Shown here in pieces: positions 2,588 through 33,055 of a stretch of DNA of 35,246 bases. The notes under the pieces are model-generated. The model was not told where the DNA came from and ran no database searches. It saw nothing but the letters and a program-made list of their open reading frames with translations. A program made the translations under genes and the position numbers. This DNA comes from a virus. The stretch is taken from UHGV virus genome UHGV-0095853. The stretch is one strand, 5' to 3'. Positions within the stretch are counted from its first letter, which is position 1. Every line of letters begins with the position of its first letter.

Positions 2588-2631
2588 CCAATTGTGTTAG
2601 AAAATTCTATTCAATTATCTAACACAATTGG
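2588..2631. promoter_or_regulatory. Perfect 14-bp inverted repeat (CCAATTGTGTTAGA / TCTAACACAATTGG, 16-bp spacer) ending 7 nt before the rdgC start codon
   Basis: Read directly; arms carry the recurrent TGTGTTAGA operator core; not followed by a U-run so not a terminator. Confidence 0.5.
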
Positions 2632-2640
2632 ATGTGTTTT

Positions 2641-3294
2641 CTATCCCTTCTTGAAATCAAAGTTGCTTGCGATAGCCTGGAAGGTGCCTCCAGCCTTGAA
2701 ATCAATATTTTCGTCGGCTGTCACAGTAATGTTTTTGCCATTAACGCTGATGTTATCGGCTGATTTGACGTTAACACTCCCTCCCGCATTCACTACTACA
2801 TCAGCCGGACCAATGATGTATATCTGCCCTGATTCATTCATTCCAATCCTTGAGCCTGCTGCCGTATTCGCTATTTCATATCCACCGCCAGCCGTTCGCA
2901 CTTCGAGCACATTGTTGCGGTGAATCACGAAATCTTTTGTCGCCGAAAATTGCGGGCGGGGAGGCGCTCCGTCTACTTCTGGTGGCGTCCAGCCGCTACC
3001 ATTGCCTGACGCCTCCGGCGCGACGTTTGGTACTCCGCCAGGCGCATCCTGAGCTGCGCCAACTATCATTGGGCGTCTGGTATCAATTCGACCATTAACA
3101 TCCAGATAAGGAAACTCTACCCATACCAGGTCGCCTTTTACTGTAGGTACAAACGCGTTACCTATGGGTAACAGGTATTCTGCCCAGGGTAGATCGTCAT
3201 CAGGAACGCCATTCCAGTCTGGTAAAACACGGACCTGAGCACGCATAAGCCCTGCCGGGTGCACAGTTCCAACAATTTGCGCTCTACGCTTCAT
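2641..3294 (-). CDS. Phage protein of unknown function; N-terminal OB-fold-like region and C-terminal Gly/Asn-rich beta-repeat resembling gpV/gp45-type baseplate spikes (tentative)
   Basis: VRVLPDWNG..LPWAE..VKGDLVWVEF pattern then VNAGGSVNVKSADNISVNGKNITV repeats; ATG overlaps upstream stop (ATGA). Confidence 0.55.
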   Translation of the reverse strand: MKRRAQIVGTVHPAGLMRAQVRVLPDWNGVPDDDLPWAEYLLPIGNAFVPTVKGDLVWVEFPYLDVNGRIDTRRPMIVGAAQDAPGGVPNVAPEASGNGSGWTPPEVDGAPPRPQFSATKDFVIHRNNVLEVRTAGGGYEIANTAAGSRIGMNESGQIYIIGPADVVVNAGGSVNVKSADNISVNGKNITVTADENIDFKAGGTFQAIASNFDFKKG

Positions 3295-4271
3295 TTGTTC
3301 GGCACTCCCAATATCATTCGTGTTGTGTAGCCTACGCGGTCTTCAAAGTGCGCAACATTTTTTACTATCAGCTTACGGGGCATTGATTCATCAATGCGGT
3401 TTTCCTGGTCATAGCGGTATACGATAATCTCTATCACCATCCCCGGTTTTATATCAGGATTGCCTGCGACTTCTATATCCATTTTGGGGACGAGAGACAG
3501 CTGCATATTGCGAAGAGTTTCCATATCAGAGTCGGATATATAACGCACTGGGAGTGAGCTATCGCCATATTCGACGTAGCCATCGGTCATGGAATACCCA
3601 ACAAAACGATATTGATTCTTTGCTGTTGTCGCATGTTCCTGTTGGAGTAGGCGCATTTTGGACAAAGTGTATTCTGCTTTAGGGTTATTCCCCTCGTAGG
3701 TAAATGATGGCGTTTGCTTCATCAGATCAGCCAGGGTGTAAAAGTTAAATTCCCCCCGGCATACCCAACATAATGCACCTTTGTCTCGCGCTATCTCCGA
3801 AAGCATTTTTGACGGTTTGTCACCGGCATTCAGATGATATGTAACTGCGCGTTTTAGCACGCTGCTGGTAATTTTAAGCTTGCCGGAATATGCCTTGAAT
3901 ATAGCGTCTGGTGTTTTGTTGGTATGTAAATTTGTGCGCGGGGAGGGGATCTTAAACCTGCGCACGTCTTCACTGACAGCAATAACGGTAACAACATCAC
4001 CAGCCAGCATTGCAGACGTAACAAAGAAATCTGTTTTAAAAGTGCCTGCATTACCGTTTGGATCGCCCATTTCAGCCACCAGCGATGCACCGTATTTGGC
4101 TTTCCAGTCATCAATTACGGTGCCGGTAGCGTCATGAATTTCCAGTTTTAGCAAAGGGGCTTTGAGGCTGGTTTTTTCTACATATACTGCGGTAAAAATC
4201 CAGTCTCGTGGCACTTTGTTATCGTTAATGAGCACTGACTGTAGAAAATATTGTTGTAACTCCTGGGCCAC
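3291..4271 (-). CDS. Hypothetical protein (326 aa)
   Basis: Long ORF, GTG start 4 nt after upstream stop, co-oriented in a 4-gene operon. Confidence 0.6.
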   Translation of the reverse strand: MAQELQQYFLQSVLINDNKVPRDWIFTAVYVEKTSLKAPLLKLEIHDATGTVIDDWKAKYGASLVAEMGDPNGNAGTFKTDFFVTSAMLAGDVVTVIAVSEDVRRFKIPSPRTNLHTNKTPDAIFKAYSGKLKITSSVLKRAVTYHLNAGDKPSKMLSEIARDKGALCWVCRGEFNFYTLADLMKQTPSFTYEGNNPKAEYTLSKMRLLQQEHATTAKNQYRFVGYSMTDGYVEYGDSSLPVRYISDSDMETLRNMQLSLVPKMDIEVAGNPDIKPGMVIEIIVYRYDQENRIDESMPRKLIVKNVAHFEDRVGYTTRMILGVPNK

Positions 4272-4274
4272 TTA

Positions 4275-5975: not shown

Positions 5976-6278
5976 ATGAAAATAATTTCGGTAAAAACAC
6001 TAAGGGATTTCTGGGCGAAGAATCCCGATGCAGAACAGCCATTAAAGGCATGGGTTGATGAAGCAACAAAGGCTGACTGGAAAAATCCGGCTGAGATCAA
6101 AGAACAGTACCGGACAGCCAGCATCCTTAAAAACAGGCGCGTGGTGTTCAATATTAAGGGAAATGATTACAGGTTAATTGTCGCAATTGCTTATCAGCGA
6201 GGATGGATGTTCGTTAAGTTTATTGGAACACATAAGGAATACGATGCCATTGAAGCGGATACAATAGAACTGGAGTAA
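5976..6278 (+). CDS. higB: Type II toxin HigB-family (RelE-fold mRNA interferase)
   Basis: About 100 aa; FNIKGNDYRLI and FIGTHKEYD signatures; directly followed by an HTH antitoxin. Confidence 0.75.
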   Translation: MKIISVKTLRDFWAKNPDAEQPLKAWVDEATKADWKNPAEIKEQYRTASILKNRRVVFNIKGNDYRLIVAIAYQRGWMFVKFIGTHKEYDAIEADTIELE

Positions 6279-6281
6279 ATC

Positions 6282-6641
6282 ATGAACATTAAACCTATCC
6301 GTACAGAACAAGATTATGAGGCCGCACTGCGTGCGGTCGAACCGATGTTCGATAACGAACCGGAAATGAACACACCGGAAGGCGATTTCTTTGAAGTAAT
6401 GTGCCTGCTCATTGAAGAGTACGAGAAAAAGCATTACCCAATTGAGCCACCATCACCTATTGAAGCCATTAAATTCCGTATGGAACAGCAAGGGCTGACC
6501 GTGAAGGATCTGGAACCGGCGATTGGTAAGTCAAATCGTGTTTACGAAGTGCTAAATGGGACACGAAATTTAACGTTACCTATGATTCGTCGTTTACATT
6601 CCCAGTTTGGCATTCCTCTTGAAAGCCTGGTTGGTGTATGA
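6282..6641 (+). CDS. higA: HigA-family antitoxin (XRE-type HTH)
   Basis: C-terminal HTH (LTVKDLEPAIGKSNRVYEVLNGTRNLTLPMIRRL); 3-nt gap after higB. Confidence 0.75.
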   Translation: MNIKPIRTEQDYEAALRAVEPMFDNEPEMNTPEGDFFEVMCLLIEEYEKKHYPIEPPSPIEAIKFRMEQQGLTVKDLEPAIGKSNRVYEVLNGTRNLTLPMIRRLHSQFGIPLESLVGV

Positions 6642-8194: not shown

Positions 8195-8387
8195 AACAAA
8201 GCCTCTCAGTCATAACCTGGGGGAAACTGTATGCAGGGTGTGAAATGCGAGAAACAGACAGGCCACCAGTTCAGGGGGATGTGGTTCATAAATCCCCTCA
8301 CTGGTGACAAGTGACTTTCATTAATCTTTATGCGGGGGCCAGCTTCATTTGCTGGCATTAGATTAAAAATTAAACGGAGTGAATGAC

Positions 8388-9227: not shown

Positions 9228-9444
9228 TGCTTTGGCGTTATGACTCCCTACCGCGCTTCGGCTGAAAGTTAATCGTCAAAAGAACCTTCAACGGGAGCCG
9301 TTAGCGCGATGGATTATGTGCAGTTTGTGATTTCCAAAATAGTGTCAACCACTTTTTGTGGATTTTATTTTTTGACCGAAATTTGGCCTAAATCATGTTG
9401 ATGTAGTTAATTGTTTTTATAACATAAAACTTCATTTTGTTTAC

Positions 9445-10068
9445 ATGAAGGATGGTGTAGTGAAGTTAAGGGTTTTAGGGGCCGCGCTCGCGGCTATGTT
9501 GGGATGCGTATCTGCTAATACTGCCAATGCAACTGCGTTACCTGCACAATTCAGGGCAGGGCAGCAGGTTATGAATAACGCTGGTGGGGATCATTCACAA
9601 GCGGCCATTATGGACTTTTGCAAGAGGGAGGGCATTCCATTACGGCCTGTTGGAACTCAGTTTATTGGTAAAACTGACTTTTGCGTTTTTGCATATACAG
9701 CATATCTGACGGACAAAGCTATAACAAAAACAGGTTATTCAACCAAAGATACTCTTTCCAGATTAAGTCAGGGATGGCAGCAATTCGAAGTGTATCGCCA
9801 GCAAGGATTAGGTGAGTTATTGCAACCACTTTTTATGCTTGCGTTGGTGCCAGAGGGGCAGCAATTTTTGGTTAAAAAGGGAATGCTTCGCCAAAGTGAT
9901 ATTGCCGGGTTCGATAGCATGATGGCTTATGAGCGCAAACTAACCGAGCAGCGAAATAAAAAACCATCTGCTTCATGTGTGCAAAGTAAAACAGCAGAAT
10001 ACAGTGCAGTAGCCGGGCCTTTAGCCAAACAAATGGCAGAGCAATGGTGTAAAAAATACGGGCAATAA
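9445..10068 (+). CDS. Exported protein of unknown function
   Basis: N-terminal signal-peptide-like segment (LRVLGAALAAMLGCVSANTANA). Confidence 0.6.
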   Translation: MKDGVVKLRVLGAALAAMLGCVSANTANATALPAQFRAGQQVMNNAGGDHSQAAIMDFCKREGIPLRPVGTQFIGKTDFCVFAYTAYLTDKAITKTGYSTKDTLSRLSQGWQQFEVYRQQGLGELLQPLFMLALVPEGQQFLVKKGMLRQSDIAGFDSMMAYERKLTEQRNKKPSASCVQSKTAEYSAVAGPLAKQMAEQWCKKYGQ

Positions 10069-11036: not shown

Positions 11037-11354
11037 TTTGACACCCCCAGCGCGAGTAAAGAATGCAGATTATCGCGTGAGTGGCGGACAACGAGTGATG
11101 GGAAAAGACAGTAGCTGTTCATAGTGTAGTGACTCCTTGCTTTCGGAGCCGCCATCGACTGTTCCACGGTCTGGTGGCGGCGCAATAAAGGCTGGAACAC
11201 CGTGAGTCAACGGGGGCTTTTCAGCCACCTATATTGCACCGCCATTGGTATGGCGGCGGCAATCATACGAAAAACTAAATAGTTTGTCTCAAAAAGTTGA
11301 CCGGTGTGCCAATCGGTAGTGAATGTACATCGGAGCATTTTTCAATTCAACTTA

Positions 11355-11371
11355 AAATGTTAGAAAACTAA
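11355..11371 (+). promoter_or_regulatory. Single operator-like site AAATGTTAGAAAACTAA at the 3' end of ref
   Basis: Near-identical to the site 25 nt upstream of gene 28613..29650. Confidence 0.35.
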
Positions 11372-11946
11372 TTTATCAATTCAATCGCCATCTGATACAA
11401 CGCCATTTCATCGGCATTGTGCCGCATGAAATCTGCTTTTCCGCCTATTTTTCCGTCAGCATGAACAGGGACCAGCCAGGGATATTGTTCTCGGACCTCG
11501 GCTGGCGCTGCGTACTGGTGGTGCCATTTACACAAAGGGAGGACATATTTATGCGCGTTCTCTGCCGTTCTCCCGAAGATATGGTGCAGGGATACCACTG
11601 GGCTATGTTGCCCGTGAATATGGCAGGCAATGCAGGGGAGAGTACCGATAGCGGTCTGTATCCGGCGTTCATCGGCTGTGAGTGATCTTCCTTTCAGGCC
11701 GCGTGACGTGCGTGTTTTTTTGGACGGAGCTGATACAGCTTTATCTTTTCTCCGCTGTTCATATTGCTTTGCTTTTTCAATTTTCTTTTGCCGATATTCA
11801 GGCGATGCGGCTTTTTCTCTCGCTCGCTGCTGCTGGCGTTGAGCTTGTTGAAGGCGCTTTGCCCTTTGTTCCTCTCGCCAGGCCGGGTCAGCCAATTTTT
11901 GCATGGCTTTTTGTCTCTGTTTCTCCCAATAACTCTGTTTCTGCAT
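11368..11946 (-). CDS. ref: Ref-like HNH endonuclease (P1 recombination enhancement function family)
   Basis: About 80-aa highly charged, probably disordered N-terminus then Cys/His-rich core (CIACHIHG...HHIFGR...CKWHH); divergent promoter carries operator pair. Confidence 0.6.
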   Translation of the reverse strand: MQKQSYWEKQRQKAMQKLADPAWREEQRAKRLQQAQRQQQRAREKAASPEYRQKKIEKAKQYEQRRKDKAVSAPSKKTRTSRGLKGRSLTADERRIQTAIGTLPCIACHIHGQHSPVVSLHHIFGRTAENAHKYVLPLCKWHHQYAAPAEVREQYPWLVPVHADGKIGGKADFMRHNADEMALYQMAIELIN

Positions 11947-11990
11947 GATGGCAGTCTCTTACTTTTCAACGATTTTTCTATGATTGATCA

Positions 11991-12031
11991 AAATGGTTAG
12001 ATATTCAAAATTGATTTTCTAACACAAAACA
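11991..12031. promoter_or_regulatory. Inverted operator pair (GTTAGA-N17-TCTAAC) in the divergent ref / DUF4406 promoter region
   Basis: GGTTAGATA at 11995-12003 and TTTTCTAACAC at 12015-12025, followed by a TAATAT -10-like hexamer. Confidence 0.45.
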
Positions 12032-12063: not shown

Positions 12064-12219
12064 ATGATGCTTATAGCTTTAAGTGCGATCCACCAGCCAT
12101 CTGTGAATGAAATTGGCCTGTTCTATGTGTTGTTTTTCGGGGCGTTGGCGCTACTTGAGCTTGGTATTGAGCTTTTCGCAGTGCTTATGTTTTGCGTCAC
12201 GATTTTGGGGAAATTTTGA
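12064..12219 (+). CDS. Small hydrophobic membrane peptide (51 aa)
   Basis: GGAGG immediately upstream of tandem ATGs; stop overlaps the next gene's ATG (TGATG). Confidence 0.4.
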   Translation: MMLIALSAIHQPSVNEIGLFYVLFFGALALLELGIELFAVLMFCVTILGKF

Positions 12220-12842
12220 TGGTGAAACGTGTTTTGAAAATTTACATCGCGGGGCCGATGACTGGTTATCCAGATTACAACCGTGCTGCGTTTAATGCGA
12301 AAGCGAGCGAGTTGATGGCTGAAGGGCATATCGTTCTGAATCCAGCTGTGTTACCTGGTGGCCTTTGTCAGAGTGAATACATGGATATTTGCCTGGCAAT
12401 GGTGCGTTCTGCTGATGCGATCTATCTGCTTAAGGGATGGGATGTGTCCGCAGGAGCACGTGCAGAACACGCTCTGGCTGAAAAACTTGGGTTGACGGTA
12501 ATTTATGAAGCACCATCTGACACAGATTGCAGAATGGCAGCGCATCTTTACCGTGAACTGGTCGATGCGTTACGTGATGTTGCTATTGAATGTCACGGCA
12601 CGGATCAGCTTCGCGCCCGCTTAAGCAATACCCTTTCCAGTTACCTGTCTTTAGCTGAAGGATACAACCTCCGGCAGCGGAGAATGGTCAAATTAATCAC
12701 GCGTTTATCTCAATCCCTGGCAAATGCCGAACCAACTAATCCGCTAGCTAATGACGCAATGAATTATCTGAAGTCATGCGGCGTTGTTTCTGAAGATGCA
12801 GTTCGTTTTGTGGAGTTTATGTCTCAGAGGATGTCGGCGTGA
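12219..12842 (+). CDS. DUF4406-like protein (nucleoside 2-deoxyribosyltransferase-like fold) with about 100-aa C-terminal extension
   Basis: N-terminal KIYIAGPMTG...VLNP...ADAIYLLKGWDVSAGARAEH pattern; ATG at 12219 preferred over the TTG at 12192. Confidence 0.55.
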   Translation: MVKRVLKIYIAGPMTGYPDYNRAAFNAKASELMAEGHIVLNPAVLPGGLCQSEYMDICLAMVRSADAIYLLKGWDVSAGARAEHALAEKLGLTVIYEAPSDTDCRMAAHLYRELVDALRDVAIECHGTDQLRARLSNTLSSYLSLAEGYNLRQRRMVKLITRLSQSLANAEPTNPLANDAMNYLKSCGVVSEDAVRFVEFMSQRMSA

Positions 12843-13156
12843 GCTGGCGGGGATGGGGAAGGGCGGAAATCATGATACTCCGCCAGTGCGCCGGGACTAT
12901 GACAGTCGAGACTATTGGGAGACTGATCGGACGTACCGGTGGCGCAGTCAGGACTAAAGCGCGGCAACTGCGGATCAGCATGATTCTGAAAGGAGACTTT
13001 CACCAGTCAGCCAAATACCGGCAGAGCGATATAGAACTGGCGCGGCAGCTTCATCAGTGTGGTGTTCCCCGCCGTGAGATCGCGGAAAAACTCGAAATGC
13101 CCCTGGGCATGATTAATCAGTACGTTTATTTCGAAAGGAGAGTGTATGAAGTCTGA
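12839..13156 (+). CDS. Hypothetical protein (105 aa), possible HTH
   Basis: GTG start overlapping upstream stop; GVPRREIAEKLEM helix-turn-helix-like segment. Confidence 0.45.
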   Translation: MSWRGWGRAEIMILRQCAGTMTVETIGRLIGRTGGAVRTKARQLRISMILKGDFHQSAKYRQSDIELARQLHQCGVPRREIAEKLEMPLGMINQYVYFERRVYEV

Positions 13157-13628
13157 AGGTTTAACGCCCGCACAACTGGCAGAGCGTAACGCTGAGTATG
13201 TAACGGAAATTTCCCGACTTGAGCAAGAACGCTCGGCGCTGGCGGCGGAGAATGTTGGGCTGAAACATGCAATGGCTGTAACTCTTGAGCATGTGTCGGT
13301 CACGGATGCAGGGCAGGCCGGAGTTGCTGCAATGATTATCAACGATGCTCTGCACCACAGCGAAACCCCAGCCACCGATGCTTTTATGGCTGAAGGGAAG
13401 ACTGAAGCACGCAAGGAAGGCGCTTATTTTGTGGCGAACAGAATGCTGGCTGCCTGGAAAGCTGGTTTTATTGATGATACTGCGAAGAACGCCGCGGATA
13501 TTGCCCGGATGATTCTTACCTCTACTGAGTTTATGGCTAATGCGCCGGAAGGCGATTTTGATCGCTCATTCTCTGATGGCGTTCTCGAAGATATCGCCGA
13601 ACAGCTTCGTAAAGGAGTCATCCAGTGA
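13146..13628 (+). CDS. Ea22-like family protein (C-terminal module paralogue)
   Basis: Shares PATDAF(M/L)AE and C-terminal AEQLRKG with 17394..18026; AGGAG before ATG. Confidence 0.55.
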   Translation: MKSEGLTPAQLAERNAEYVTEISRLEQERSALAAENVGLKHAMAVTLEHVSVTDAGQAGVAAMIINDALHHSETPATDAFMAEGKTEARKEGAYFVANRMLAAWKAGFIDDTAKNAADIARMILTSTEFMANAPEGDFDRSFSDGVLEDIAEQLRKGVIQ

Positions 13629-14266: not shown

Positions 14267-14511
14267 GTAATACCGCACGACTACAGCTTGGTTTTTCACC
14301 GCTATCAAAAACCATCGTGTTGGCAAAAATGCGTGACTTAGGGGATGGAACAAAACGTCGTGTCGGCAATGATCGCGGTCGTGATGTTACCAACGAGGCC
14401 GCACAACTCGTTTGGCATCTAGTCATGGCTGAAGGCGGTGAAATTAATTGGGAGCTGGATGATGGTTCTCGCATGGTATTAAAGGCAGAAAAGCAGGAGC
14501 CACCACAGTGA
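14263..14511 (+). CDS. Hypothetical protein (82 aa)
   Basis: GTG start coupled to upstream stop (GTGA); conserved AAAGGAGGCAAAC junction. Confidence 0.45.
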   Translation: MSNTARLQLGFSPLSKTIVLAKMRDLGDGTKRRVGNDRGRDVTNEAAQLVWHLVMAEGGEINWELDDGSRMVLKAEKQEPPQ

Positions 14512-16001: not shown

Positions 16002-16021
16002 TCAAATCATTTACGCACTCA

Positions 16022-16063
16022 AAATGTGTTAGAACATTGATTTTAGTTTTCTAACATATTATT
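16022..16063. promoter_or_regulatory. Inverted operator pair (GTTAGA-N15-TCTAAC) upstream of gene 16099
   Basis: TGTGTTAGAAC at 16025-16035 and TTTTCTAACATA at 16047-16058, then TATTAT. Confidence 0.45.
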
Positions 16064-21192: not shown

Positions 21193-21402
21193 ATGAAGCA
21201 TTTTTTAAGGTTGGCATTTGTTCTGGCGCTATTTGCTCCTCCGGCTGCAATGGCTGGAGAACAGCAACATTGCACAAAAGAGAATGAACACCCTTTCATC
21301 GTTATTCAATGCGATGACGGAACGGTGACTGTGGTTAATGTAAGAAATGACCGTGTAGCTGTTTGCCGTAAAGGCGAACCATGCAAGGAAATAAAACTAT
21401 GA
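21193..21402 (+). CDS. Small exported Cys-containing protein (69 aa)
   Basis: Signal peptide LAFVLALFAPPAAMA; four Cys in mature part. Confidence 0.5.
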   Translation: MKHFLRLAFVLALFAPPAAMAGEQQHCTKENEHPFIVIQCDDGTVTVVNVRNDRVAVCRKGEPCKEIKL

Positions 21403-22157
21403 CAAGAATCACTAAAGAGCGTATTTCAGATATTATTTCCCGTATCGAAATGTATGGTCACGGTGCTGGATATACGGCAGATGAAGTATTGGCACTTGCC
21501 CAAATGGCTTTGGCGGCTTGCAAAGATGATAAAAAAATGAAGCTTATCGACTTGTTAGTGAAAGAGCTGCCTAAGTGCGGCGGGTGGCCTGATGGTATGA
21601 TCGATTGTCGCCTGCTCAGTGCCAATTTAATGGCGCCATGCGCGACTTTTGCTTTTGGCTCAGACCACAAAAAAGACACGTTCTTTGGGCGCAATTTTTG
21701 TTGTGAGATTGAGCTTCCAATTGGTGACCTTGATAGCGATGAATACCTGTCAGTTGTCACTCGCGAACAATACGAATCAGCTCTCATAGCGTCGCAGAAA
21801 GTCGAGTTCAATGGTGATGAACTTGAAAGTAAGACTTACAGGTTGGATTTTGGGCAATGGCTGGAACAGCAACGCGGGAAAATCGATGTGGACTGTGGTT
21901 GTGTGTCCACTGAAACATTCATGCACTGGCTGCGGGTAGCTTACGAGGCTGGCAACCATCCGGATTTTCCGGATAGTTCCCAACAATCGCCCAAGAAAAG
22001 CGTAAAAACCACTCTGGAAAGAGGCTATCTTGAGGCCGCATTAAAGATTAAGCCGGGCCATACGCTAGGCGTCATTGATGCCATGTTGGTTCATGAAATG
22101 GCGAAGGCTTTATTGCCGCTGGTGGCTGATAAAATTCCGAATAAAGCCGATATCTGA
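21399..22157 (+). CDS. Hypothetical protein (about 252 aa)
   Basis: ATG 21399 overlaps upstream stop; Cys-rich. Confidence 0.55.
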   Translation: MTRITKERISDIISRIEMYGHGAGYTADEVLALAQMALAACKDDKKMKLIDLLVKELPKCGGWPDGMIDCRLLSANLMAPCATFAFGSDHKKDTFFGRNFCCEIELPIGDLDSDEYLSVVTREQYESALIASQKVEFNGDELESKTYRLDFGQWLEQQRGKIDVDCGCVSTETFMHWLRVAYEAGNHPDFPDSSQQSPKKSVKTTLERGYLEAALKIKPGHTLGVIDAMLVHEMAKALLPLVADKIPNKADI

Positions 22158-22170
22158 TCACCATGCTAAA

Positions 22171-22199
22171 ATCCCCTCAATTCACAGAGGGGATTTTTG
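22171..22199 (+). terminator. Intrinsic terminator after gene 21399..22157
   Basis: Hairpin atcccctc-aattcaca-gaggggat followed by TTTTT. Confidence 0.55.
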
Positions 22200-22202
22200 T
22201 AT

Positions 22203-22469
22203 ATGTTGCATAGAGTTTTATGGAAAAGCGTTATTGTCGGCGCGATACTGGCTATATCTGGGTGTGCAATGGTGCAATACAACGACGGTGAAAAGGTAAG
22301 CATACAGTCAGATGGTTGGTATGGCCTGGATAGCCTGCAAAAAACCGCAGATAAAGCCTGTCAGCAATATGGGAAGTCTAAAGCAGTATATCAGCATAGC
22401 GCGAACGCTAACCCTCATCTAGCGCCCGGTTCTGGTGTTCAGAATACCATCTGGAAATGTGAGCCTTAA
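22203..22469 (+). CDS. Putative lipoprotein
   Basis: Signal peptide ending in lipobox-like ISGC; ATG at 22203. Confidence 0.5.
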
Positions 22470-22471
22470 AT

Positions 22472-22723
22472 ATGAGCGACTGGAATATTGCAGCTAAAAG
22501 TCAGGAAGAACGGGATAAGGTTAACGTTGATCTGGCTGCCAGCGGTGTGGCGTACAAAGAGCGATTGAACATACCTGTCATAGCTGAACAGGTAGCCCGC
22601 GAGCAACCAGAGAATCTGCGCACCTATTTCATGGAACGGCTACGGCACTACCGGCAGTTAAGCCTCCAGTTGCCAAAAGGGAGCGATCCGGTGTATCAGA
22701 ACGAGGATGCACCAAAAAAATAA
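22472..22723 (+). CDS. Hypothetical protein (83 aa)
   Basis: ATG 2 nt after upstream stop. Confidence 0.5.
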
Positions 22724-22808
22724 CGGCAAGATGGGGGAGAAATGTGATTAGCCCCCAGCGTGGCGCGCCTACAAACCCCGCTTTCACAAACTATGCCTTT
22801 TCAATGTA

Positions 22809-22828
22809 TACTGTATGAATAAACAGTA
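22809..22828 (+). promoter_or_regulatory. LexA (SOS) box upstream of the UmuD'-like gene
   Basis: TACTGTATGAATAAACAGTA: CTGT-N8-ACAG with AT-rich centre, 19 nt upstream of the ATG. Confidence 0.7.
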
Positions 22829-22846
22829 TCATTGAGGTAAAACGCT

Positions 22847-23236
22847 ATGGGCTTCCCTTCTCCTGCGGCGGATTATGCAGAGAGCCGCATTTCTCTTGAT
22901 CAGCAACTAATCAGACATCCTTCCGCGACCTACTTCATGCGGGCGGCAGACAGCCATCACCGTGAGGGAATATTGCAAGGTGCTTTGCTGGTGGTTGATT
23001 CCTCACTTACTCCGGTTGATGGTTCACTGCTTATATGCGCCATGGAGGGTGAATATCGCATAAAGAGATACAGGAAGTATCCGCGCCAGCACCTGGAGGA
23101 TTTAAGCACCGGGAAGAAAGAGGCGTTACCAGTGGATGACGATGGATGCACGGGCAGTAATGCTGTGTTTGGTGTGATCACTCATGTCATTAATGATGCC
23201 CGAAGTGGGGAGTTTGATTATAGACCTGTGATTTAA
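22847..23236 (+). CDS. humD: UmuD'-like protein (P1 HumD-type, begins at the position of the UmuD autocleavage site)
   Basis: MGFPSPAADYAESRISLDQQLIRHPSATYF matches UmuD residues 25 onward; Ser and Lys of the S24 dyad retained; lacks the N-terminal 24 residues. Confidence 0.8.
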   Translation: MGFPSPAADYAESRISLDQQLIRHPSATYFMRAADSHHREGILQGALLVVDSSLTPVDGSLLICAMEGEYRIKRYRKYPRQHLEDLSTGKKEALPVDDDGCTGSNAVFGVITHVINDARSGEFDYRPVI

Positions 23237-25816: not shown

Positions 25817-26311
25817 TTAAAACTTTGCGTACTGAAGCGGTGTACGCTTGATTTCAACGCGGCCTTCCGATGTGCTACCAAAGCCACCAGCACCACGCTC
25901 CGTTTCGTTGAGTTCCTCAACCTCGACTAGTGAGACTTGTTCAACACGCTCAAAAATTCCTTGCATGACAGCCATTCCAGGCTTGAGACAAACGCCTTCC
26001 CCGCCGGGATCAGTAATCAGTTTTGCCATGATTTCGCCGCGATAATCGGAGTCGATAATTCCTACGCAGTTAGCCAGGCGAGTATGTTTTTTGCAGCCCA
26101 ATCCTGATCGCGGATAGAGTTTCAGACACCAGCCTGGCGGGATCTCCATAGCCAGTCCGGTATACACCCACCAGCTTGAGGAAATTGCACCATTGCTATC
26201 GACGCATGGTTTTATTTCAACAGCCTCAAAATCCATCGCCGCCGATCCGGAGGTGGCATAAGCTGGAAGTTTTGCTGCCGGATGTAGGCGTTTCACTTTT
26301 ACGTAAATCAT
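25817..26311 (-). CDS. dut: dUTP diphosphatase (dUTPase)
   Basis: AYATSGSAAMD, PRSGLG, GIIDSDYRGEI, ERGAGGFGSTS motifs. Confidence 0.85.
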   Translation of the reverse strand: MIYVKVKRLHPAAKLPAYATSGSAAMDFEAVEIKPCVDSNGAISSSWWVYTGLAMEIPPGWCLKLYPRSGLGCKKHTRLANCVGIIDSDYRGEIMAKLITDPGGEGVCLKPGMAVMQGIFERVEQVSLVEVEELNETERGAGGFGSTSEGRVEIKRTPLQYAKF

Positions 26312-26784
26312 TGTTTTTTAGCTCTCTGCGTGAAGGTGTAAACCCGACGTTTGATATGTGGAACGGTAGGAACAGGAAGACAGGAACTTTCAATAACTCC
26401 TTGCTCCTCCAGCGATCGCACCGCCCGCAAGAACTGCGACGTGTCGCCGCCAAACTGGCGGGCATAGGTGCTGCCGTTATGAAGTATTTGAGCTATTACC
26501 CGAGCTTTTGTCTGGCTGTCACGATATGCGAATAGCCGCACGGCCTCTTCTGGCGCAATCGCTAACTGATAGCCTTTCCCGGCACGGTGTCGAATGAATC
26601 CATGCGCCAGTAGGTTTTTGAGTTCGTTACGAGTGCGAACAGATCCGTAATCCAGGAAGTGTGGATTGATAACGACTGGCTTAAACCATTCCGTAGGTGC
26701 TTTAGCTAATAGAGCTAACAGCTTCCCGGATAATTCTGGATAGGAAGACGGGTAACAATTCAGAGATGGGTAATAAGTTTTCAC
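26308..26784 (-). CDS. Hypothetical protein, possible winged-helix DNA-binding protein
   Basis: GTG start overlapping upstream stop; two wHTH-like segments. Confidence 0.45.
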   Translation of the reverse strand: MKTYYPSLNCYPSSYPELSGKLLALLAKAPTEWFKPVVINPHFLDYGSVRTRNELKNLLAHGFIRHRAGKGYQLAIAPEEAVRLFAYRDSQTKARVIAQILHNGSTYARQFGGDTSQFLRAVRSLEEQGVIESSCLPVPTVPHIKRRVYTFTQRAKKQ

Positions 26785-27125
26785 CGACGCCCCCTTGCAG
26801 GATATCGACCGGCATTAGTATCCGGTGCAATAAAGCCGGTAGTGGGGCGAGTGAAAGCGAGATTAATCTTCTCGACCATAGTGCGATAATTTTCCTGATA
26901 GTGGGCCAGGAGTTTTTCGGCGGCAATGATGGTTACTTTCCGGACGTAGCTTTCTGCTTCCTCCAGATTTCGCCAGTTTTTTTCGAGGGTAAACACAGGG
27001 ACGGCCTCAAGCCCGGTCATGATGCCGAACACAACGACAGCATGACTGTTCTTAACACCAGCGGCGAAGGTTACGGTGTAACCATCCACCTTGAAGCGTC
27101 TTGATTCCGTGATTTGACTCTGCAA
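26781..27125 (-). CDS. Hypothetical protein (114 aa)
   Basis: TTG start with AGGAGG 6 nt upstream; first gene after the operator at 27180-27196. Confidence 0.45.
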   Translation of the reverse strand: MQSQITESRRFKVDGYTVTFAAGVKNSHAVVVFGIMTGLEAVPVFTLEKNWRNLEEAESYVRKVTIIAAEKLLAHYQENYRTMVEKINLAFTRPTTGFIAPDTNAGRYPARGRR

Positions 27126-27179
27126 AGCACCCTCCTAAATAGGCGAGGGTACTTTACAGCAAAGGCGTTAATCTAAAAA

Positions 27180-27196
27180 GATGTGTTAGAAATTTA
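27180..27196. promoter_or_regulatory. Single operator-like site GATGTGTTAGAAATTTA between the recombinase stop and the dut operon
   Basis: Matches the recurrent TGTGTTAGAAA core. Confidence 0.4.
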
Positions 27197-27198
27197 AT

Positions 27199-28227
27199 TT
27201 ACGAATCCATCAGGCGGCTATTAGCCCCCACAGACACGCCGCCACGGCGAAGATACCGCATAAGTGTTTCCGGTTTCTTCCAGGTTCCTTCCTGCATGAT
27301 CTCCACCATAGACACCTGCTTTTCAGCCATATCGATAGCGGCCCCGACACGAGCACTATGCCCGGTCCACGTCCGGTATCTCCCTTTGTTTGGCGTGGCA
27401 TCTCTTTTATTCAGCAACACCCAGGCGTCGCTGAATATTTTCTCCATTGCAGGTGCAGTAAGGGGAGTTGTCGTAATCCTGGCCTTATTGCTACGGTGTA
27501 TCGGCGGGAACAGCACCGCGTCAGGATGTTCACGAAGCCCGGAAACATCCAGCCAGTCATTCAGCACTGCGGTAGTGCGACGGGAAAGCACCTTATCAAG
27601 CCCGGCGGCGGTCGTTATTGTCTTCGTGTGTGAAATATGTAGCGTGACAGTGTCACCTGTTTGGTCCAGATCTCCTACACGAATACGCGAGATTTCAGAC
27701 ATTCGCATCAGCGTATTGTATGCAACGAAGAGGAAAGCCCGGTTACGCAGGTCCACCAGCCGTTCTGACCTGGACAACAGGACGTCGAGCAGTTTCAGAT
27801 CGTCCCACCGCAGCGGTATAGCCTGGCCTGTTCGTTCGCCTTTTTCCGTTGCCGCTTCGCGCCGAATGCGCCGCATAGCCAGAGAAATACTTTTATCATC
27901 CGAAAGTGGCGGAAGGCCACAATGCGAAAGCAGCATGTTAAGCATGGCGTAGTGCTTATCAATGGTGGTCGAAGCCAGATCAGCATCATGCAGCTGAAGA
28001 AAATACTCGCGGGCCATCTCTGGTGAGATCGGGAACCAGGCGAGCTGGCGAGCGTGGCACCATCGCGCCCAGGAGTGAAACACTAACCGGAGATCGCGCA
28101 AAGTATTCGGCGCGTAAGCCCCCTGGTCATTCATGAACCGCATAAAGTTTTCTGCGGCCTCCTGGTACTCTTTGCCAATGTTGCGCAGAAAACCACCGGA
28201 GCTGCCAGAGATAATTAATTCACTCAT
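27199..28227 (-). CDS. dre: Cre/Dre-family tyrosine site-specific recombinase
   Basis: Collinear with P1 Cre (about 40 percent identity by eye); catalytic R (YNTLMRMSEISRIRV), H-x-x-R (GHSARVG), W and Y (TWKKPETLMRY) conserved; adjacent rox-like site. Confidence 0.85.
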   Translation of the reverse strand: MSELIISGSSGGFLRNIGKEYQEAAENFMRFMNDQGAYAPNTLRDLRLVFHSWARWCHARQLAWFPISPEMAREYFLQLHDADLASTTIDKHYAMLNMLLSHCGLPPLSDDKSISLAMRRIRREAATEKGERTGQAIPLRWDDLKLLDVLLSRSERLVDLRNRAFLFVAYNTLMRMSEISRIRVGDLDQTGDTVTLHISHTKTITTAAGLDKVLSRRTTAVLNDWLDVSGLREHPDAVLFPPIHRSNKARITTTPLTAPAMEKIFSDAWVLLNKRDATPNKGRYRTWTGHSARVGAAIDMAEKQVSMVEIMQEGTWKKPETLMRYLRRGGVSVGANSRLMDS

Positions 28228-28379
28228 GAAACTATTTAACCTCTATATACAGATGACGCTACGCGAAAAATATAAAAATGACAGGGTAGCTATAAGTTAA
28301 TTTTCAAAATTCAAGCCTTTGATTCGAGGCACGTATTTTTAGTGATGTCAACACTGATCATCTACCCATGATTATAGTC

Positions 28380-28411
28380 TAACTTTAAATAATACTAATT
28401 ATCTAAAGTTA
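28380..28411. other. rox/lox-like recombination site: 14-bp inverted repeats around a 4-bp spacer
   Basis: TAACTTTAAATAAT-ACTA-ATTATCTAAAGTTA; arms differ at one position; about 150 bp upstream of the recombinase start; resembles published rox as recalled and shares the TAACTT core of loxP arms. Confidence 0.6.
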
Positions 28412-28581
28412 GAAACTTAGGAATTTTTTTCCTTTCCGCGTAGATGGGCAATGCATTGCTGGCGTGGGCTTTAAGTTATGCCTGGCAGTTTTTAAGCAGA
28501 ATTTTCTAAATTGGATGATAAAAAAATGCATCTTGATCCTTTACTCACCCTGTTATTCGGCATAGATTTGTCATAGTAATT

Positions 28582-28598
28582 TTATGTTAGAAAACTAA
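28582..28598 (+). promoter_or_regulatory. Operator-like site TTATGTTAGAAAACTAA about 25 nt upstream of gene 28613
   Basis: Near-identical to the site at 11355-11371. Confidence 0.4.
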
Positions 28599-28612
28599 AT
28601 CGAGTAGGAATA

Positions 28613-29650
28613 ATGAGTAAGAAGTCGATCGAGAAAGAGTACAAACGGTTCCTGCAAACCGCTGAACGGTGGAAAGAGCTGGTGGTCGCAAACTCTGTTT
28701 TCCATGATACCAGTTATGCCGGCGAGGAATTCCGCCATGTTGCACTAACACATGATCAGAATGTGCTAGAAGAAGCTGAAAAGTGCCTCACAGAATGGAA
28801 AGCCTTTGTTGACTTGTGCCGTAACGCTGACGGCAAAGCGTCTAACATTGTTGAGTCTGTATATTCTCCGATCCCATTCATTATCGAGGACACAAATCAA
28901 AGCACGCATATTGTTGTGCAAAGCGCGACCACCACCCGCTCATTTACGCGCGAAAATCTGCTCAAAAAATATGATGCAATTATAAAGAAAAGCCTGAAAA
29001 ACAAGATATTTTCGCAGATTGTTGGTGCGCTTGAAGAAGAGCGCCGTTTTTTCGCATCAGAACCTGAAGGGGAAGTTTACCGGGCGCGCAAAGATGGATA
29101 CACAGATGTAGTGCTTACAACAAACATTGAAGGCAGCAATGCTCTGTCACGATTCAGGGTAGGCGCACACGGAGCCTTAGTGTTCGCAAAACTTCCTAAC
29201 ACCACAGTGCCCGTTGTTAATAATGTCGGCGAACGTCGCAGCATTACTATTTATTCTGGGGTTGAGTCGATACCTTGCGGCCTGCTTGGTGACTTTAGTC
29301 TCTATCGCGTTCGCGATCTGGAGAAACACCAACCAAGCTATGTTGCGAAGTCATACATCTTGCGAAACATCGACATCCGCAATGAGAGCTTAAAGAACAA
29401 ATCAGCCAAAATGCTTGAGGAAGCCGATCCGGCTATTCGCCATATCATTGAGCGTAAAATACAGACAGCACGCGAAGCGATGGCGCGACTGAATAAAATG
29501 GATCTGGAGTTGTTAGACGTAATGATGACATCCGGAGATGACCTGACAGGCATAAAACTGACAGACGCGCGGAAAAGATACGGTAAAACCATAGAAGAAC
29601 GTTACGGGTTCACTTTCTCCCAAACACAGCACGCCGCTAAACTCTGGTAA
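28613..29650 (+). CDS. Hypothetical protein (345 aa) at the c1-equivalent position; positional candidate for the immunity repressor
   Basis: Convergent with pacB and divergent from the recombinase, as c1 is in P1; operator-like site directly upstream; no sequence-level confirmation. Confidence 0.5.
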   Translation: MSKKSIEKEYKRFLQTAERWKELVVANSVFHDTSYAGEEFRHVALTHDQNVLEEAEKCLTEWKAFVDLCRNADGKASNIVESVYSPIPFIIEDTNQSTHIVVQSATTTRSFTRENLLKKYDAIIKKSLKNKIFSQIVGALEEERRFFASEPEGEVYRARKDGYTDVVLTTNIEGSNALSRFRVGAHGALVFAKLPNTTVPVVNNVGERRSITIYSGVESIPCGLLGDFSLYRVRDLEKHQPSYVAKSYILRNIDIRNESLKNKSAKMLEEADPAIRHIIERKIQTAREAMARLNKMDLELLDVMMTSGDDLTGIKLTDARKRYGKTIEERYGFTFSQTQHAAKLW

Positions 29651-29654
29651 TCAC

Positions 29655-29683
29655 AAGCCCCGCATTGCCGGGGCTTTATATAT
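29655..29683 (+). terminator. Terminator-like hairpin after gene 28613..29650
   Basis: Stem aagccccg / cggggctt with loop cattgc, then TATATAT. Confidence 0.45.
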
Positions 29684-31184
29684 CCAGATCTGGCATTTCC
29701 ACATCTGCAAGAACCTGATCGCGGAAGGTAGCCATTTCAGCGCCGATATCTTCATTAGCAGGAACATAGTCCACCAGCATTGTAAAGCAGTAGGTATCCC
29801 ATCGGTCAGGTGATTTGATGTTCAGCTTTTGCCGCATGTGCTCCTTGCGCATCATCGCCATCTTCCCTTCTTCATTAAGTAAAAAGGGGATTTTTGACGC
29901 TTGCTCTGCCGTTTTAGGGTCACTGTCTATTCGCATACGACCTGACTTTATGGCATCACGAGCCATAATATTTGCGTAGGCACGCTGGTTAACAAAACGC
30001 TCCTTGTCTTTGTTCGAAAACATGGGTTTCCCCCACCGAATCCGTACCGGATTAGCCCCACGGCGCACCAGCTGCGCACAGGTATCTGAACCAAAACCGT
30101 CTGCGTCAACCGCGATTGTAATATTCGGGTATTTATCCGGCGTGCATTCGTTGTATATAAAGTCAGCAAAAGCCAGCGGGTCCATAGTCCCTGGCATTTC
30201 CATTACCTTAAAGTTAACAACACGCCGCTTTTCCCGGTGACCAGACACTTTACAGATATTAAGAACTGACTTGTCTCGCCCGTTACCAACGTCAGCAGTA
30301 GCCACCCATCCCCAGTTTTTCTCCAACAACACCTTGCGCCGCGCAGCGCGATCGCATTCATCACGACCAAGCAAATAGCCGTTAATCTCCCGAGGAAACT
30401 GACCAAGAACCTTGACCATGTACTCAATAGAATCGCGCCCGCCATATTCCAGGAGTTTCTGCCTGATGAATTGTGGTGTGACGAACGGTGATTCTTCTGA
30501 GTTAAGAACAATTGCTGTCCAGATCCCTTTCGGGTTGTCTGGGGTTTTAGCTTGAGAATGGTGCGAATCGTAGAAATAACCACTTGGCCTTGTTGGCTGG
30601 GATAGCATCAACATTCGGTTATCTTCTTCAGTCAGAGCGCCAGTCATTACGCCGATCGCTTTATCAGATATACCTGATGCTTCATCCAGAATTAGAAGCA
30701 AATGTGCCGCGTGCTCCCCCGCCAGAGCTTCTTCGTTACCGAGTCGATAGCCTTTGCAGAGAACTTCCCAGATCCCCTTTCGAGAGCGTTCATAAAACAT
30801 GGTGTCAGACAGGACAAAATAGGTCTGTAACCACCCATGACGCTTAACGGCATTCGCCCAATACTGTTTAACGTATTTGAATACACCTGTCTTAACCTGA
30901 CCTATTTTGTTAGCAACAATGATGACACGGGCATCGGGGAACAGAATCAAATAAATCAGCAACAACATAGCCGTTAGCGACGATTTCCCTGTACCGTGAC
31001 CAGAGGTAACAGTGGTTCTGCTCCCTTTTTGCTGTACGGACTGGATAATCTCCTGCTGCTGGTGGGAGGGAAACATCCCGAATATATCAACAACAGCCTG
31101 GGTAAAGTTGTAGCGGTATTTGATTACCATATCGCGCCAGCGTGGATCGCTGGTGACGCATTTAATCTTGCGCCCACCAGCCAT
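29676..31184 (-). CDS. pacB: Terminase large subunit (PacB-like)
   Basis: Walker A TSGHGTGKSS, Walker B LLLILDEA; 502 aa; directly downstream of the small-subunit gene with 1-nt overlap. Confidence 0.8.
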   Translation of the reverse strand: MAGGRKIKCVTSDPRWRDMVIKYRYNFTQAVVDIFGMFPSHQQQEIIQSVQQKGSRTTVTSGHGTGKSSLTAMLLLIYLILFPDARVIIVANKIGQVKTGVFKYVKQYWANAVKRHGWLQTYFVLSDTMFYERSRKGIWEVLCKGYRLGNEEALAGEHAAHLLLILDEASGISDKAIGVMTGALTEEDNRMLMLSQPTRPSGYFYDSHHSQAKTPDNPKGIWTAIVLNSEESPFVTPQFIRQKLLEYGGRDSIEYMVKVLGQFPREINGYLLGRDECDRAARRKVLLEKNWGWVATADVGNGRDKSVLNICKVSGHREKRRVVNFKVMEMPGTMDPLAFADFIYNECTPDKYPNITIAVDADGFGSDTCAQLVRRGANPVRIRWGKPMFSNKDKERFVNQRAYANIMARDAIKSGRMRIDSDPKTAEQASKIPFLLNEEGKMAMMRKEHMRQKLNIKSPDRWDTYCFTMLVDYVPANEDIGAEMATFRDQVLADVEMPDLDI

Positions 31185-32548
31185 TAGTCATCCTCCGGCG
31201 GTTCTATCGCAATATCATCATCTCCGGCGTCATACCCTGCATCTGATGCATCATAATCACCGTAAATTTCAGCCGTTGCCGAAGGGTCAATGTCCAACTC
31301 TTCATCGTTGGCCTCGAATTCCCCAGCCTTACGCTCGCCATTGTGGTCGTAATCTCCGCACCCCAGATCTTCAACAATGGTTGCCACATCCGCCCGGCGC
31401 TCTGCCAGCCATTGCGGATGGTTAGCCTGAAGCGATGCAAACTCCTTCGCTTCTTTGTCCAGCTGTTCATCATCAACATCATTGATGTCAGAAACTGGAG
31501 GTTCGAGAAGAGTGATAGCTTTCGCCGCGCGCGCCGCGAGGATAGCCGGGACACTGACACCCTGACGCTCGATGTATTCAGCAACACCGATATCGTCCAG
31601 CTCCTCGCGCTCACGCATACGTATAGCGGCGGCGATAACTCTGGCTGCGCGTGCGTCAGCGCCAATGCGATATTCAATCTCTTTGCCACGCTGTTCGGCC
31701 TGTAGGCGTGCTAATTCGAGTTTTTCTCTGGCCTCGGCCTCTCTGAATGCTTGCTGGCGAGCACCCTGACGAAGTTTTTCATCACCCTGTCGCAGCTTTT
31801 GTTCGGACTGATATATCGCTGCCAACCTACTGATAAAATCGTTCATGTAGTAGGCCGCGTCACTGATTAGACCGAGAAGTCGCTGCCCAGGGTGCATTCC
31901 TTCTGGCTGTTCATCACCCAGGGCGTCTATCTCCGCCTGTAGGCGTTCGGCCTCCTGATCAACAATGCTTTGGTACTGAAGTGCGCGTTCTTGCGCCATT
32001 TGAATTGCTAACCGCAGGTGCTCTTCTGCGCCGTTCTTCATCATGTCGCGAGCCACACTCGTAGTGGGCAACGTGGCACGCTGCACAGCACCGCCAGGGA
32101 TCATTGCTGAAGATCCCTCGATTTTTGAGGCGCATTTATCTTCGGTGGGGATCATTTTCGCCATTTTTTCGCGCAATGATCTCCTGACAGATTCTTTTAT
32201 CTCATTGTTATTATTGTCGTTATTTTTATGATCCGAAGTTTTCTTTCTCGGCATGCTCCGGAAAGAACTTCCGCTCTGTGAATTGTCAGTTTCTGTAAAT
32301 TTTGTTGTTTCTGTACCCTCTTCTGGCCTTTTTTTTGCTCTTCCTGCCCGTTTTTTTTCAGGTGATTTGGTGCTTTTTTTTGTAGTCTTCACCTGCGACC
32401 GCACCTCATTTTTTTTCATATTGAGATGCTTTCTGGCGGTATTGAAGCTAAGGTCGTGTTGCTCGCAGTATTCCTTTACGGTGATCCCTTTTTCTTCACG
32501 CAACGCTATAAATTTGGCGCGGTGCTCTTCCCAATTAACAAGGCTCAT
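31184..32548 (-). CDS. pacA: Terminase small subunit (PacA-like)
   Basis: N-terminal HTH-like segment (ITVKEYCEQHDLSFNTARKHL); position upstream of pacB; contains GATC-hexamer cluster; long acidic C-terminus. Confidence 0.7.
   Translation of the reverse strand: MSLVNWEEHRAKFIALREEKGITVKEYCEQHDLSFNTARKHLNMKKNEVRSQVKTTKKSTKSPEKKRAGRAKKRPEEGTETTKFTETDNSQSGSSFRSMPRKKTSDHKNNDNNNNEIKESVRRSLREKMAKMIPTEDKCASKIEGSSAMIPGGAVQRATLPTTSVARDMMKNGAEEHLRLAIQMAQERALQYQSIVDQEAERLQAEIDALGDEQPEGMHPGQRLLGLISDAAYYMNDFISRLAAIYQSEQKLRQGDEKLRQGARQQAFREAEAREKLELARLQAEQRGKEIEYRIGADARAARVIAAAIRMREREELDDIGVAEYIERQGVSVPAILAARAAKAITLLEPPVSDINDVDDEQLDKEAKEFASLQANHPQWLAERRADVATIVEDLGCGDYDHNGERKAGEFEANDEELDIDPSATAEIYGDYDASDAGYDAGDDDIAIEPPEDD
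32099..32233. other. Candidate pac (packaging initiation) site: five GATC-containing hexamers within 135 bp inside pacA
   Basis: GATC at 32099, 32112, 32150, 32178, 32230 with AT-rich tracts between; about 0.5 expected by chance. Confidence 0.4.
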
Positions 32549-32937
32549 AAAGCAACACCACGCTTTTTAACTGCGGCATTCCACAGCTTATTAGTCATGT
32601 CCACCAGCTTGCGCTGCTCTTGTCGCGCCAGTTCTGCAGACTTCCGGCTACAGTTTTTAACCAGCAAACTGCCGTATTCAGGGGTGCGCCCGCGCACCTT
32701 GAACTGATATCCGTTCAGGCCATGCAACCAGTATTTCCGTGGGTAAACACGATCATCAAGCTCACAAATAGCTCGGCTTGACCGCACAAAATGCCGAATG
32801 ATGTTGGTTACACTTACGCGTGAAACATGAAGGTGAGGATATTTTTCTTTAGCTAGAGTGGTAATTTCGGTGACTGTCAGATAGCAGTCAGCCCTAATCA
32901 TGATATCCGCAATTTCTGCGCTGCTGATATGCTCCAT
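32545..32937 (-). CDS. lpa: Lpa-like late promoter activator (positional call)
   Basis: 130-aa protein immediately upstream of pacA with ATGA overlap, as lpa is in P1; operator pair upstream; GGGGGA before ATG. Confidence 0.4.
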   Translation of the reverse strand: MEHISSAEIADIMIRADCYLTVTEITTLAKEKYPHLHVSRVSVTNIIRHFVRSSRAICELDDRVYPRKYWLHGLNGYQFKVRGRTPEYGSLLVKNCSRKSAELARQEQRKLVDMTNKLWNAAVKKRGVAL

Positions 32938-33010
32938 TAATCCCCCGGGCAGGAAATGACCGAGGGGATGATAATGAGAATGTTATTTCTGTATAGACTG
33001 GCAAAAAGTT

Positions 33011-33055
33011 TGTTATATTAGAAAATTAATTCCATTCATCTAACACTACCAGCGA
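33011..33055. promoter_or_regulatory. Inverted operator pair (TTAGA-N16-TCTAAC) upstream of the lpa-like gene
   Basis: ATTAGAAAATTAA at 33015-33028 and TCTAACAC at 33039-33046. Confidence 0.4.

Follow-up and report, generated by a model that had tools for sequence, protein, structure and literature searches.

An asymmetric word of 16-17 bp, TrTGTTAGAAAAnTAA (informative core, 16 positions), is dispersed between the genes of UHGV virus genome UHGV-0095853 and is very probably the operator of a D6-type C1 immunity repressor. This stretch of 35,246 nucleotides, called the window below, belongs to an E. coli plasmid prophage that resembles phage D6. Positions 26000-34000 share 89-91% identity with the immC region and genome of phage D6 (AY753669, MF356679) and 99.5% with E. 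coli plasmids of ~90 kb. Over positions 1-25000 the window agrees with plasmid NZ_CP135715 at a rounded 100%. That plasmid, whose annotation served as the gene map, is a close proxy only, since there are 502 differences over the whole window. An earlier note on this DNA had proposed a C1-type immunity network with altered operator specificity. The sequence comparisons below support that proposal; the operator consensus of phage P1, ATTGCTCTAATAAATTT, has no match in the window within 3 mismatches.

The motif is strongly enriched over composition-matched shuffles, the control that the earlier note had put forward. With at most 2 mismatches allowed, the 12-mer TGTGTTAGAAAA occurs 15 times in the window versus 3.4 expected (the highest shuffle had 8), TGTTAGA occurs 12 times versus 3.5, and the paired form TTAGA-N16-TCTAA 4 times versus 0.01. 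When all 8-mers were ranked by enrichment in an unbiased scan, TGTGTTAG and GTGTTAGA were second and third, with Chi just below; the top-ranked 8-mer lies inside paralogous coding repeats. The remaining enriched 8-mers, namely Chi and words of the paralogous ead/Ea22 coding repeats, were set aside as not regulatory. Annotated spacers make up 16% of the window. All 11 copies of the form T[GA]TTAGA[AT] are in the 5.7 kb of intergenic DNA, with none in the 29.6 kb of coding DNA, in line with the suggestion that the copies sit almost only in promoter regions. When matrices were built with one locus left out, 9 of the 11 sites ranked tenth or better among 70,454 positions; the weak half-sites at 11997 (plus) and 33039 (minus) came 18th and 73rd, both at the exact pair spacing. 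The consensus given above comes from 57 distinct sites pooled, and is partly circular because the pool was picked with the matrix.

Two other occurrences of the core hexamer GTTAGA were discarded. One, near 34520, is the D-loop of tRNA-Met, and the other, at 28378/28408, corresponds to the arms of a rox site.

The spacers are AT-rich, with 27-38% G+C at the sites, and the word has TATGTT...CTAA in common with TerB. It might on these grounds be a by-product of AT-rich spacers or the site of a host protein such as IHF, Fis or a Tus/Ter-like factor. Both are extremely improbable. Spacer-by-spacer shuffling, a control for AT-richness, gives 0.63 copies of TGTTAGA versus 10 observed, which rules out a composition artefact. 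The Ter core GTTGTAAC is not in the sites, and elements that share their hosts would not differ in a host-factor site according to their C1 clade, as they do in this word (see below).

There are 13 sites in the window, which form four pairs and five singles. All eleven copies described in the earlier note are real, at the coordinates given there and outside coding sequence; two conserved sites, 9411-9430 and 28495-28514, had been missed. The sites, as 20-mers, are as follows.

2589..2608, plus: rdgC bivalent operator, promoter-distal/left arm, CAATTGTGTTAGAAAATTCT, between the upstream stop codon at 2641 and the rdgC start at 2581; the D6 counterpart of the pair is 64110/64132.
2611..2630, minus: rdgC operator, second arm, CAATTGTGTTAGATAATTGA, carrying a -10-like GATAAT.
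9411..9430, minus: additional candidate operator, GTTTTATGTTATAAAAACAA, core TTATA, matrix score 14.9, in the divergent spacer between a mat-like gene (start 9176, minus) and gene 9460-10068; kept in D6 at 72198-72217, between mat and simB.
11352..11371, plus: monovalent operator, TTAAAATGTTAGAAAACTAA, kept in D6 at 75974.
11989..12008, plus: ref/DUF4406 divergent promoter pair, weak half-site, CAAAATGGTTAGATATTCAA; D6 counterpart 76611.
12011..12030, minus: ref/DUF4406 pair, strong half-site, GTTTTGTGTTAGAAAATCAA.
16021..16040, plus: pdcB-like operator, half-site, AAAATGTGTTAGAACATTGA, after the stop of the phosphatase gene (16001) and before the pdcB-like DUF968 gene; D6 counterpart 80703.
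16043..16062, minus: pdcB-like operator, second arm, ATAATATGTTAGAAAACTAA; D6 counterpart 80725.
27178..27197, plus: monovalent dut-operon operator, AAGATGTGTTAGAAATTTAA, in the interval from the operon start at 27125 to the dre stop (27199); kept in D6 and in alleles with 81% and 72% C1 identity, where the flanks have diverged.
28495..28514, minus: distal c1-region site, CCAATTTAGAAAATTCTGCT, core TTTAGAAAA, 84 bp upstream of the c1-proximal site.
28579..28598, plus: proximal c1 operator, ATTTTATGTTAGAAAACTAA, which stops 15 nt short of the c1 ATG; presumed autoregulatory site.
33010..33029, plus: lpa operator, lpa-proximal arm, TTGTTATATTAGAAAATTAA, upstream of the lpa start at 32937.
33032..33051, minus: lpa operator, weak distal arm, TGGTAGTGTTAGATGAATGG, overlapping the stop codon of gene 33046-33438; kept in 3 of 4 aligned alleles and degenerate in D6.

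In all four pairs GTTAGA and TCTAAC are separated by exactly 16 bp, not by the 15-17 bp reported before, and the centres of the two 20-mers lie 22 bp apart. A degenerate partner at the 22-bp offset was sought for the single sites and none was found. The copy previously placed at 11355-11371 is upstream of the leftward genes after ref and overlaps the ref stop codon (11368). The two sites of the dre-c1 spacer are separated by 84 bp, about eight helical turns, and by ~82-84 bp in distant relatives.

In the 16-bp spacer of the ref/DUF4406 and pdcB-like pairs there is a TTGAAT or TTGATT, and -10-like hexamers are found beneath the downstream arm or a little past it; the ref/DUF4406 spacer holds both of these -35-like hexamers. 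The end of the proximal c1 site, 15 nt before the ATG, is where the transcript start would fall. Since the sites overlap or adjoin -35- and -10-like hexamers, and TTAGAA or GATAAT occur inside some of them, the word could be read as a promoter element for RNA polymerase or an activator, an early-promoter signature. Against this, it has no fixed orientation relative to the downstream gene, it forms inverted pairs with invariant spacing at four loci, and one site is only 15 nt from the c1 start codon. The sole activator-dependent promoter type known in P1, the Lpa-dependent late promoter, has another box, AAGTGACTT; a separate copy of that box is present at 8309-8317, which means that the motif under study differs from it, and the box was rejected as the identity of the word. 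A promoter element is a very unlikely explanation.

The sites extend beyond the window. A matrix made from the window sites only was run on the rest of NZ_CP135715 with a threshold of at least 15 bits, and 7 further sites were found, every one intergenic in the annotation. Their locations are the upstream region of repL, the interval from repL to icd/antirepressor, the region preceding a VRR-NUC gene, both sides of a 402-aa gene that is a homologue of D6 pmgS, and the spacer separating the capsid gene from a divergent gene (orf52). No site reaching that threshold was found in the 21-kb block of tail genes. The plasmid has ~20 sites in total. Phage D6 has 20 at orthologous places, and three of its 22-bp pairs, those of rdgC, ref and the pdcB-like gene, are the same as here. 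In alleles whose C1 is 90, 81 and 72% identical, the sites are conserved islands in diverged spacers, and the alleles at 81% and 72% retain those of the dut operon, c1 and lpa. At the distal c1 site, for example, TTTTCTAA is an invariant island in a spacer that is otherwise unalignable (four alleles). Contigs with C1 proteins 52, 50 and 45% identical have TGTTAGAAAA in front of c1, past the integrase gene and in front of lpa; sites persist upstream of the dut operon at this level of identity as they do at c1 and lpa, and a strong copy occupies the position of the distal c1 site in these relatives (45-52% C1 identity).

The candidate binding protein is encoded beside two of the sites.

28613-29650, plus: c1, 345 aa, distant homologue of the P1/P7 C1 repressor.

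This protein is 90% identical to the C1 of D6. The earlier note had suggested aligning it with P1 C1, and the alignment does reveal homology. In BLASTP the two are 20% identical over 239 residues (E 8e-8), with an identity range of 18-20%, and comparison of profiles of the two C1 groups (hhalign) gives, over 231 columns, a probability of 98.4% and E 8e-15. D6-type and P1-type C1 are both assigned to the precomputed family PF27008, Phage_P7_repressor_C1; there was no match for the window's C1 in the Pfam copy searched, which is without the PF27008 model. Judged by sequence, the product of gene 28613-29650 is genuinely, though distantly, homologous to P1 C1.

The regulon also resembles that of P1. 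In P1 there are 22 dispersed asymmetric operators with consensus ATTGCTCTAATAAATTT that control RepL and Lpa among others (PMC8546580). Their positions, taken from the annotations of the P1 RefSeq record, correspond to D6-type sites as follows.

P1 Oc1a-e, before c1 and coi: 28495-28514 and 28579-28598 here.
P1 Olpa, over the -35 of Plpa: the lpa pair, 33010-33051.
P1 Oref, inside P2ref: the ref pair, 11989-12030.
P1 Omat, overlapping the P1 ref stop codon: 11352-11371, which likewise overlaps the ref stop codon.
P1 OrepL, before kilA-repL: the site before repL on NZ_CP135715.
P1 Oc4, before c4-icd-ant: the site between repL and icd/antirepressor on NZ_CP135715.
P1 Orlf, just after repL: the same repL-icd/antirepressor site may correspond.

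The parallel drawn earlier between the genes fronted and the P1 regulon holds for c1, lpa and ref, which carry sites at P1 operator places. It fails for the "methylase region": the pair at 16022-16063 fronts the pdcB-like DUF968 gene, and the D12 methylase lies at 114-1115. With the D6-type matrix, nothing was detected on P1 at the P1 operator positions.

A third clade is represented by Pantoea plasmid CP009882, a phage-plasmid of the same general type with a C1 that is 29% identical. It has a dispersed word of its own, ~TAATTTAGAAT..TGTgt, for example at 4220, 5569, 12221, 69207/69221 and 76242/76256. In an unbiased 8-mer scan of this plasmid the top word was TTTAGAAT, 13 copies versus 1.0 expected, with TAATTTAG, AATTTAGA and ATTTAGAA also among the top words. 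TTTAGAA occurs 21 times, with copies beyond the integrase stop, ahead of c1 and ahead of the lpa-like region. Overlapping divergent pairs, TTCTAAA-N7-TTTAGAA, are present, one of them before rdgC. Three C1 clades therefore have their own words at the same places, ATTGCTCTAATAAATTT in P1, TGTGTTAGAAAA in the D6 type and TAATTTAGAAT in Pantoea, and all contain TTAGA. When the words are aligned on TTAGA, the paired cores point outward and are 11-14 bp apart in the P1 and Pantoea types, and point inward, with centres 22 bp apart, in the D6 type. This covariation of word and C1 clade is the strongest argument available from sequence alone that the sites are bound by C1.

A second enriched word, TGTTTATAA, was noted on CP009882 in 19 copies.

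Other DNA-binding proteins are encoded on the element, for example at 12872-13156 (annotated "DNA-binding protein"), and there is an XRE regulator elsewhere on the plasmid. The motif might then belong to a small XRE-type or other DNA-binding protein, or to a lytic regulator of the Cro/Coi kind, with C1 recognizing something else. This is unlikely, if less so than the explanations considered above. The unbiased scan revealed no other dispersed intergenic word of comparable rank, every relative, even at 45% C1 identity, has the motif directly in front of c1, it substitutes for the P1 C1 operators position for position, and it switches with the C1 clade.

How C1 might recognize such a site is suggested by its predicted fold. 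An AlphaFold2 model was built from 11 homologues (mean predicted local distance difference test score, pLDDT, 85; predicted template modelling score, pTM, 0.56). A Foldseek search of the PDB with this model returned only four matches with E <1e-3, all of them Tus (E 1.4e-7 to 3.3e-6, probability 1.0, template modelling (TM) score 0.38-0.43); the next match had E 0.07. Sequence searches of the PDB, with a single sequence or a profile and E up to 10, gave no match to C1 and no similarity to Tus, and they identified no PF27008 member with a solved structure. The BFVD structure search had no significant match. The resemblance was not replicated with a P1-type C1, for which the model was too poor (pLDDT 57). 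No paper linking Tus with a C1 repressor was found in a literature search. The Tus resemblance of the model is a promising lead. Tus binds its asymmetric site as a monomer, and monomer binding has also been reported for P1 C1. A combined proposal, which we hold tentatively and at slightly less than even odds, is that the C1 proteins of the P1, P7 and D6 type (PF27008) are structural relatives of Tus; they would bind long asymmetric operators as monomers with a Tus-like two-domain beta-strand clamp, not a helix-turn-helix, and clade specificities would have diversified around a kept TTAGA core while the geometry of the pairs was re-arranged. If this kinship is true, it might also make a difference which way a single site points, through polar effects on moving machines of the kind seen with Tus-Ter. 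The three-clade comparison and the Tus-like model together offer a route to how a repressor family without helix-turn-helix reads asymmetric DNA.

The following mechanism can be proposed. In the plasmid-prophage state C1 would occupy the sites, probably as one molecule per asymmetric site like P1 C1, which fits the predicted Tus-like fold. Bound C1 would overlap or flank -35 and -10 hexamers and transcript starts, and repress sigma-70 promoters sterically. Early and accessory operons would be kept off; besides c1 and lpa, sites lie in the promoter regions of rdgC and ref and of the DUF4406 early, pdcB-like and dut operons. Repression of lpa would block the late cascade and repression of repL would block lytic replication; lpa is the key regulated target in that it ties the repressor to the late genes. 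Through the two sites upstream of c1 the repressor would curb its own synthesis. At the paired sites two C1 molecules could sit on the same helix face, two turns apart, bracketing a -35-like TTGAxT. Derepression may come from the antirepressor module, which itself bears an operator.

Several points weigh against the assignment of the word to C1, or against this mechanism. The promoter assignments are weak consensus matches, and the promoter scan gave overall fewer promoter-like matches than shuffles. At lpa the best -35/-10 match is ~15 bp downstream of the operator pair, not under it. In principle the sites could also be bound by some other conserved DNA-binding protein that the element encodes. 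The similarity of the word to the P1 operator sequence is not significant. The match of 11 of 17 positions to the P1 consensus claimed in the earlier note is reproducible, but it is obtained in the direct and the reverse-complement register and is reached by 7% of shuffled consensuses (p ~0.07). It was consequently rejected as evidence of sequence kinship, and, being obtained in both registers, it fits either relative orientation of the two words. The sole robust element common to them is the pentamer TTAGA/TCTAA. Finally, the details of the P1 circuit are not simply transferable, since no coi-sized open reading frame (ORF) was seen in the dre-c1 spacer 28228-28612 (385 bp; ORFs wholly inside it are at most 40 aa, and no profile search for Coi was made) and since the corepressor gene lxc is reported undetected in D6-like plasmids (PMC6799933; no profile search for Lxc was made here).

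The genes to which the sites relate are listed below, as mapped from the NZ_CP135715 annotation.

1676-2581, minus: rdgC.
11368-11946, minus: ref.
~12064 to 16001, plus: long early operon.
16141 to 23236, plus: second operon.
Start 27125, minus (leftward): orf2-orf3-dut operon.
27199-28227, minus: dre, stop at 27199.
29676-31184, minus: pacB.
Minus strand: pacA.
32545-32937, minus: lpa, late promoter activator (PF25716), start 32937.

Several other features were observed. Downstream of rdgC is an ORF for a D12-class N6-adenine DNA methyltransferase (114-1115, minus), which overlaps the 3' end of hypothetical gene 1012-1632 and is missing from the PLSDB gene table of the plasmid. Positions 1-65 hold the end of a glutaminyl-tRNA synthetase gene. 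A HigB/HigA toxin-antitoxin pair (5976-6641) is inserted on the opposite strand where tail genes give way to baseplate genes. Back-to-back copies of the P1 late-promoter -22 box (AAGTGACTT / AAGTCACTT) are present at 8309-8325, in the spacer between a gene-26-like baseplate gene and the mat-like gene; they probably mark a late promoter dependent on Lpa, separate from the C1-type word. Near the right end, gene 33438-34013 (minus) has a Tad2-like (anti-Thoeris) domain (E 1.5e-9), followed by tRNA-Met (CAT) at 34467-34542 (minus), a match to the Rfam small RNA STnc100 at 34725-34845 (minus; 47 bits, exactly the gathering score) and tRNA-Ser (TGA) at 34955-35041 (minus).

The rox-type site at 28380-28411, TAACTTTAAATAATACTAATTATCTAAAGTTA, differs from the rox of D6 in its 4-bp centre, ACTA for GCCA, and in one right-arm position. 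The site of the 72% C1 allele has the same ACTA centre and right-arm C, with one left-arm difference. Such a site may be heterospecific in recombination with standard rox. The Chi octamer GCTGGTGG occurs 31 times in the whole window (13 plus, 18 minus; for example 275, 4846 and 7428 on the plus and 1705 and 4076 on the minus strand) versus ~3.5 expected. It is on both strands with no obvious single polarity. On the Pantoea plasmid the numbers are 89 versus 12.

D6-like phage-plasmids are frequent in E. coli, Salmonella and Shigella, and ~150 PLSDB plasmids have a c1 of this kind. With the operator word and the site map, the C1-controlled regulon becomes readable for the whole D6-like cluster. 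Immunity groups can be predicted, with one core from 45 to 100% C1 identity that is unlike those of P1 and the Pantoea clade. The results also point to orthogonal repressor/operator pairs beside the Dre/rox and Cre/lox tools.

This kind of system is already known from P1 immC, and the C1 of D6 has already been annotated as a C1 relative. What sets the D6 type apart is the operator word, the pair geometry and what is apparently a lack of Coi and Lxc, with a homologous repressor and the logic of the regulon retained. A literature search, which did not cover the D6 genome paper or the first D6 immC sequence paper, found no description of the sites; it also found no paper that pairs phage D6 with a C1 repressor or uses the motif in a C1 context.

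Dispersed operators occur in other phages. The sites of mycobacteriophages L5 and L1 are 13 bp long and often orientation-biased within operons, and the repressor has a helix-turn-helix. The likeness is that one repressor serves many asymmetric operator and stoperator sites spread over the genome (PMC1934351). The protein family is unrelated and no homology is implied. The comparison with Tus-Ter of E. coli is structural: there is no sequence similarity to C1, the TM-score is ~0.4, and it rests on a model from an 11-sequence alignment. The functions also differ, fork arrest for Tus and repression of transcription for C1.

Phage D6 (MF356679, AY753669), the reference member of the cluster, shares all operator loci with the window. 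It differs in the rox spacer and in having an extra icd/antirepressor module after ref, which the window is without. Neither of its two GenBank records has operator annotation.

Compared with P1 and P7 immC, the operator sequence is different and C1 is longer, 345 aa versus 283 aa. Oc1ab of P1 consists of two 17-mers that overlap by 6 bp, with centres 11 bp apart and cores outward, whereas the D6-type pairs, TTAGA-N16-TCTAA, are non-overlapping and convergent with centres 22 bp apart. The spacer equivalent to dre-c1 contains imcA, imcB and coi in P1. What the systems have in common is a homologous repressor (PF27008); a neighbourhood in which c1 lies between pacB and the rox-like site 28380-28411 and dre (27199-28227), so that pacB-c1-rox-dre mirrors pacB-c1-lox-cre of P1; and ~20 dispersed asymmetric sites of ~17 bp per genome, both monovalent and bivalent.

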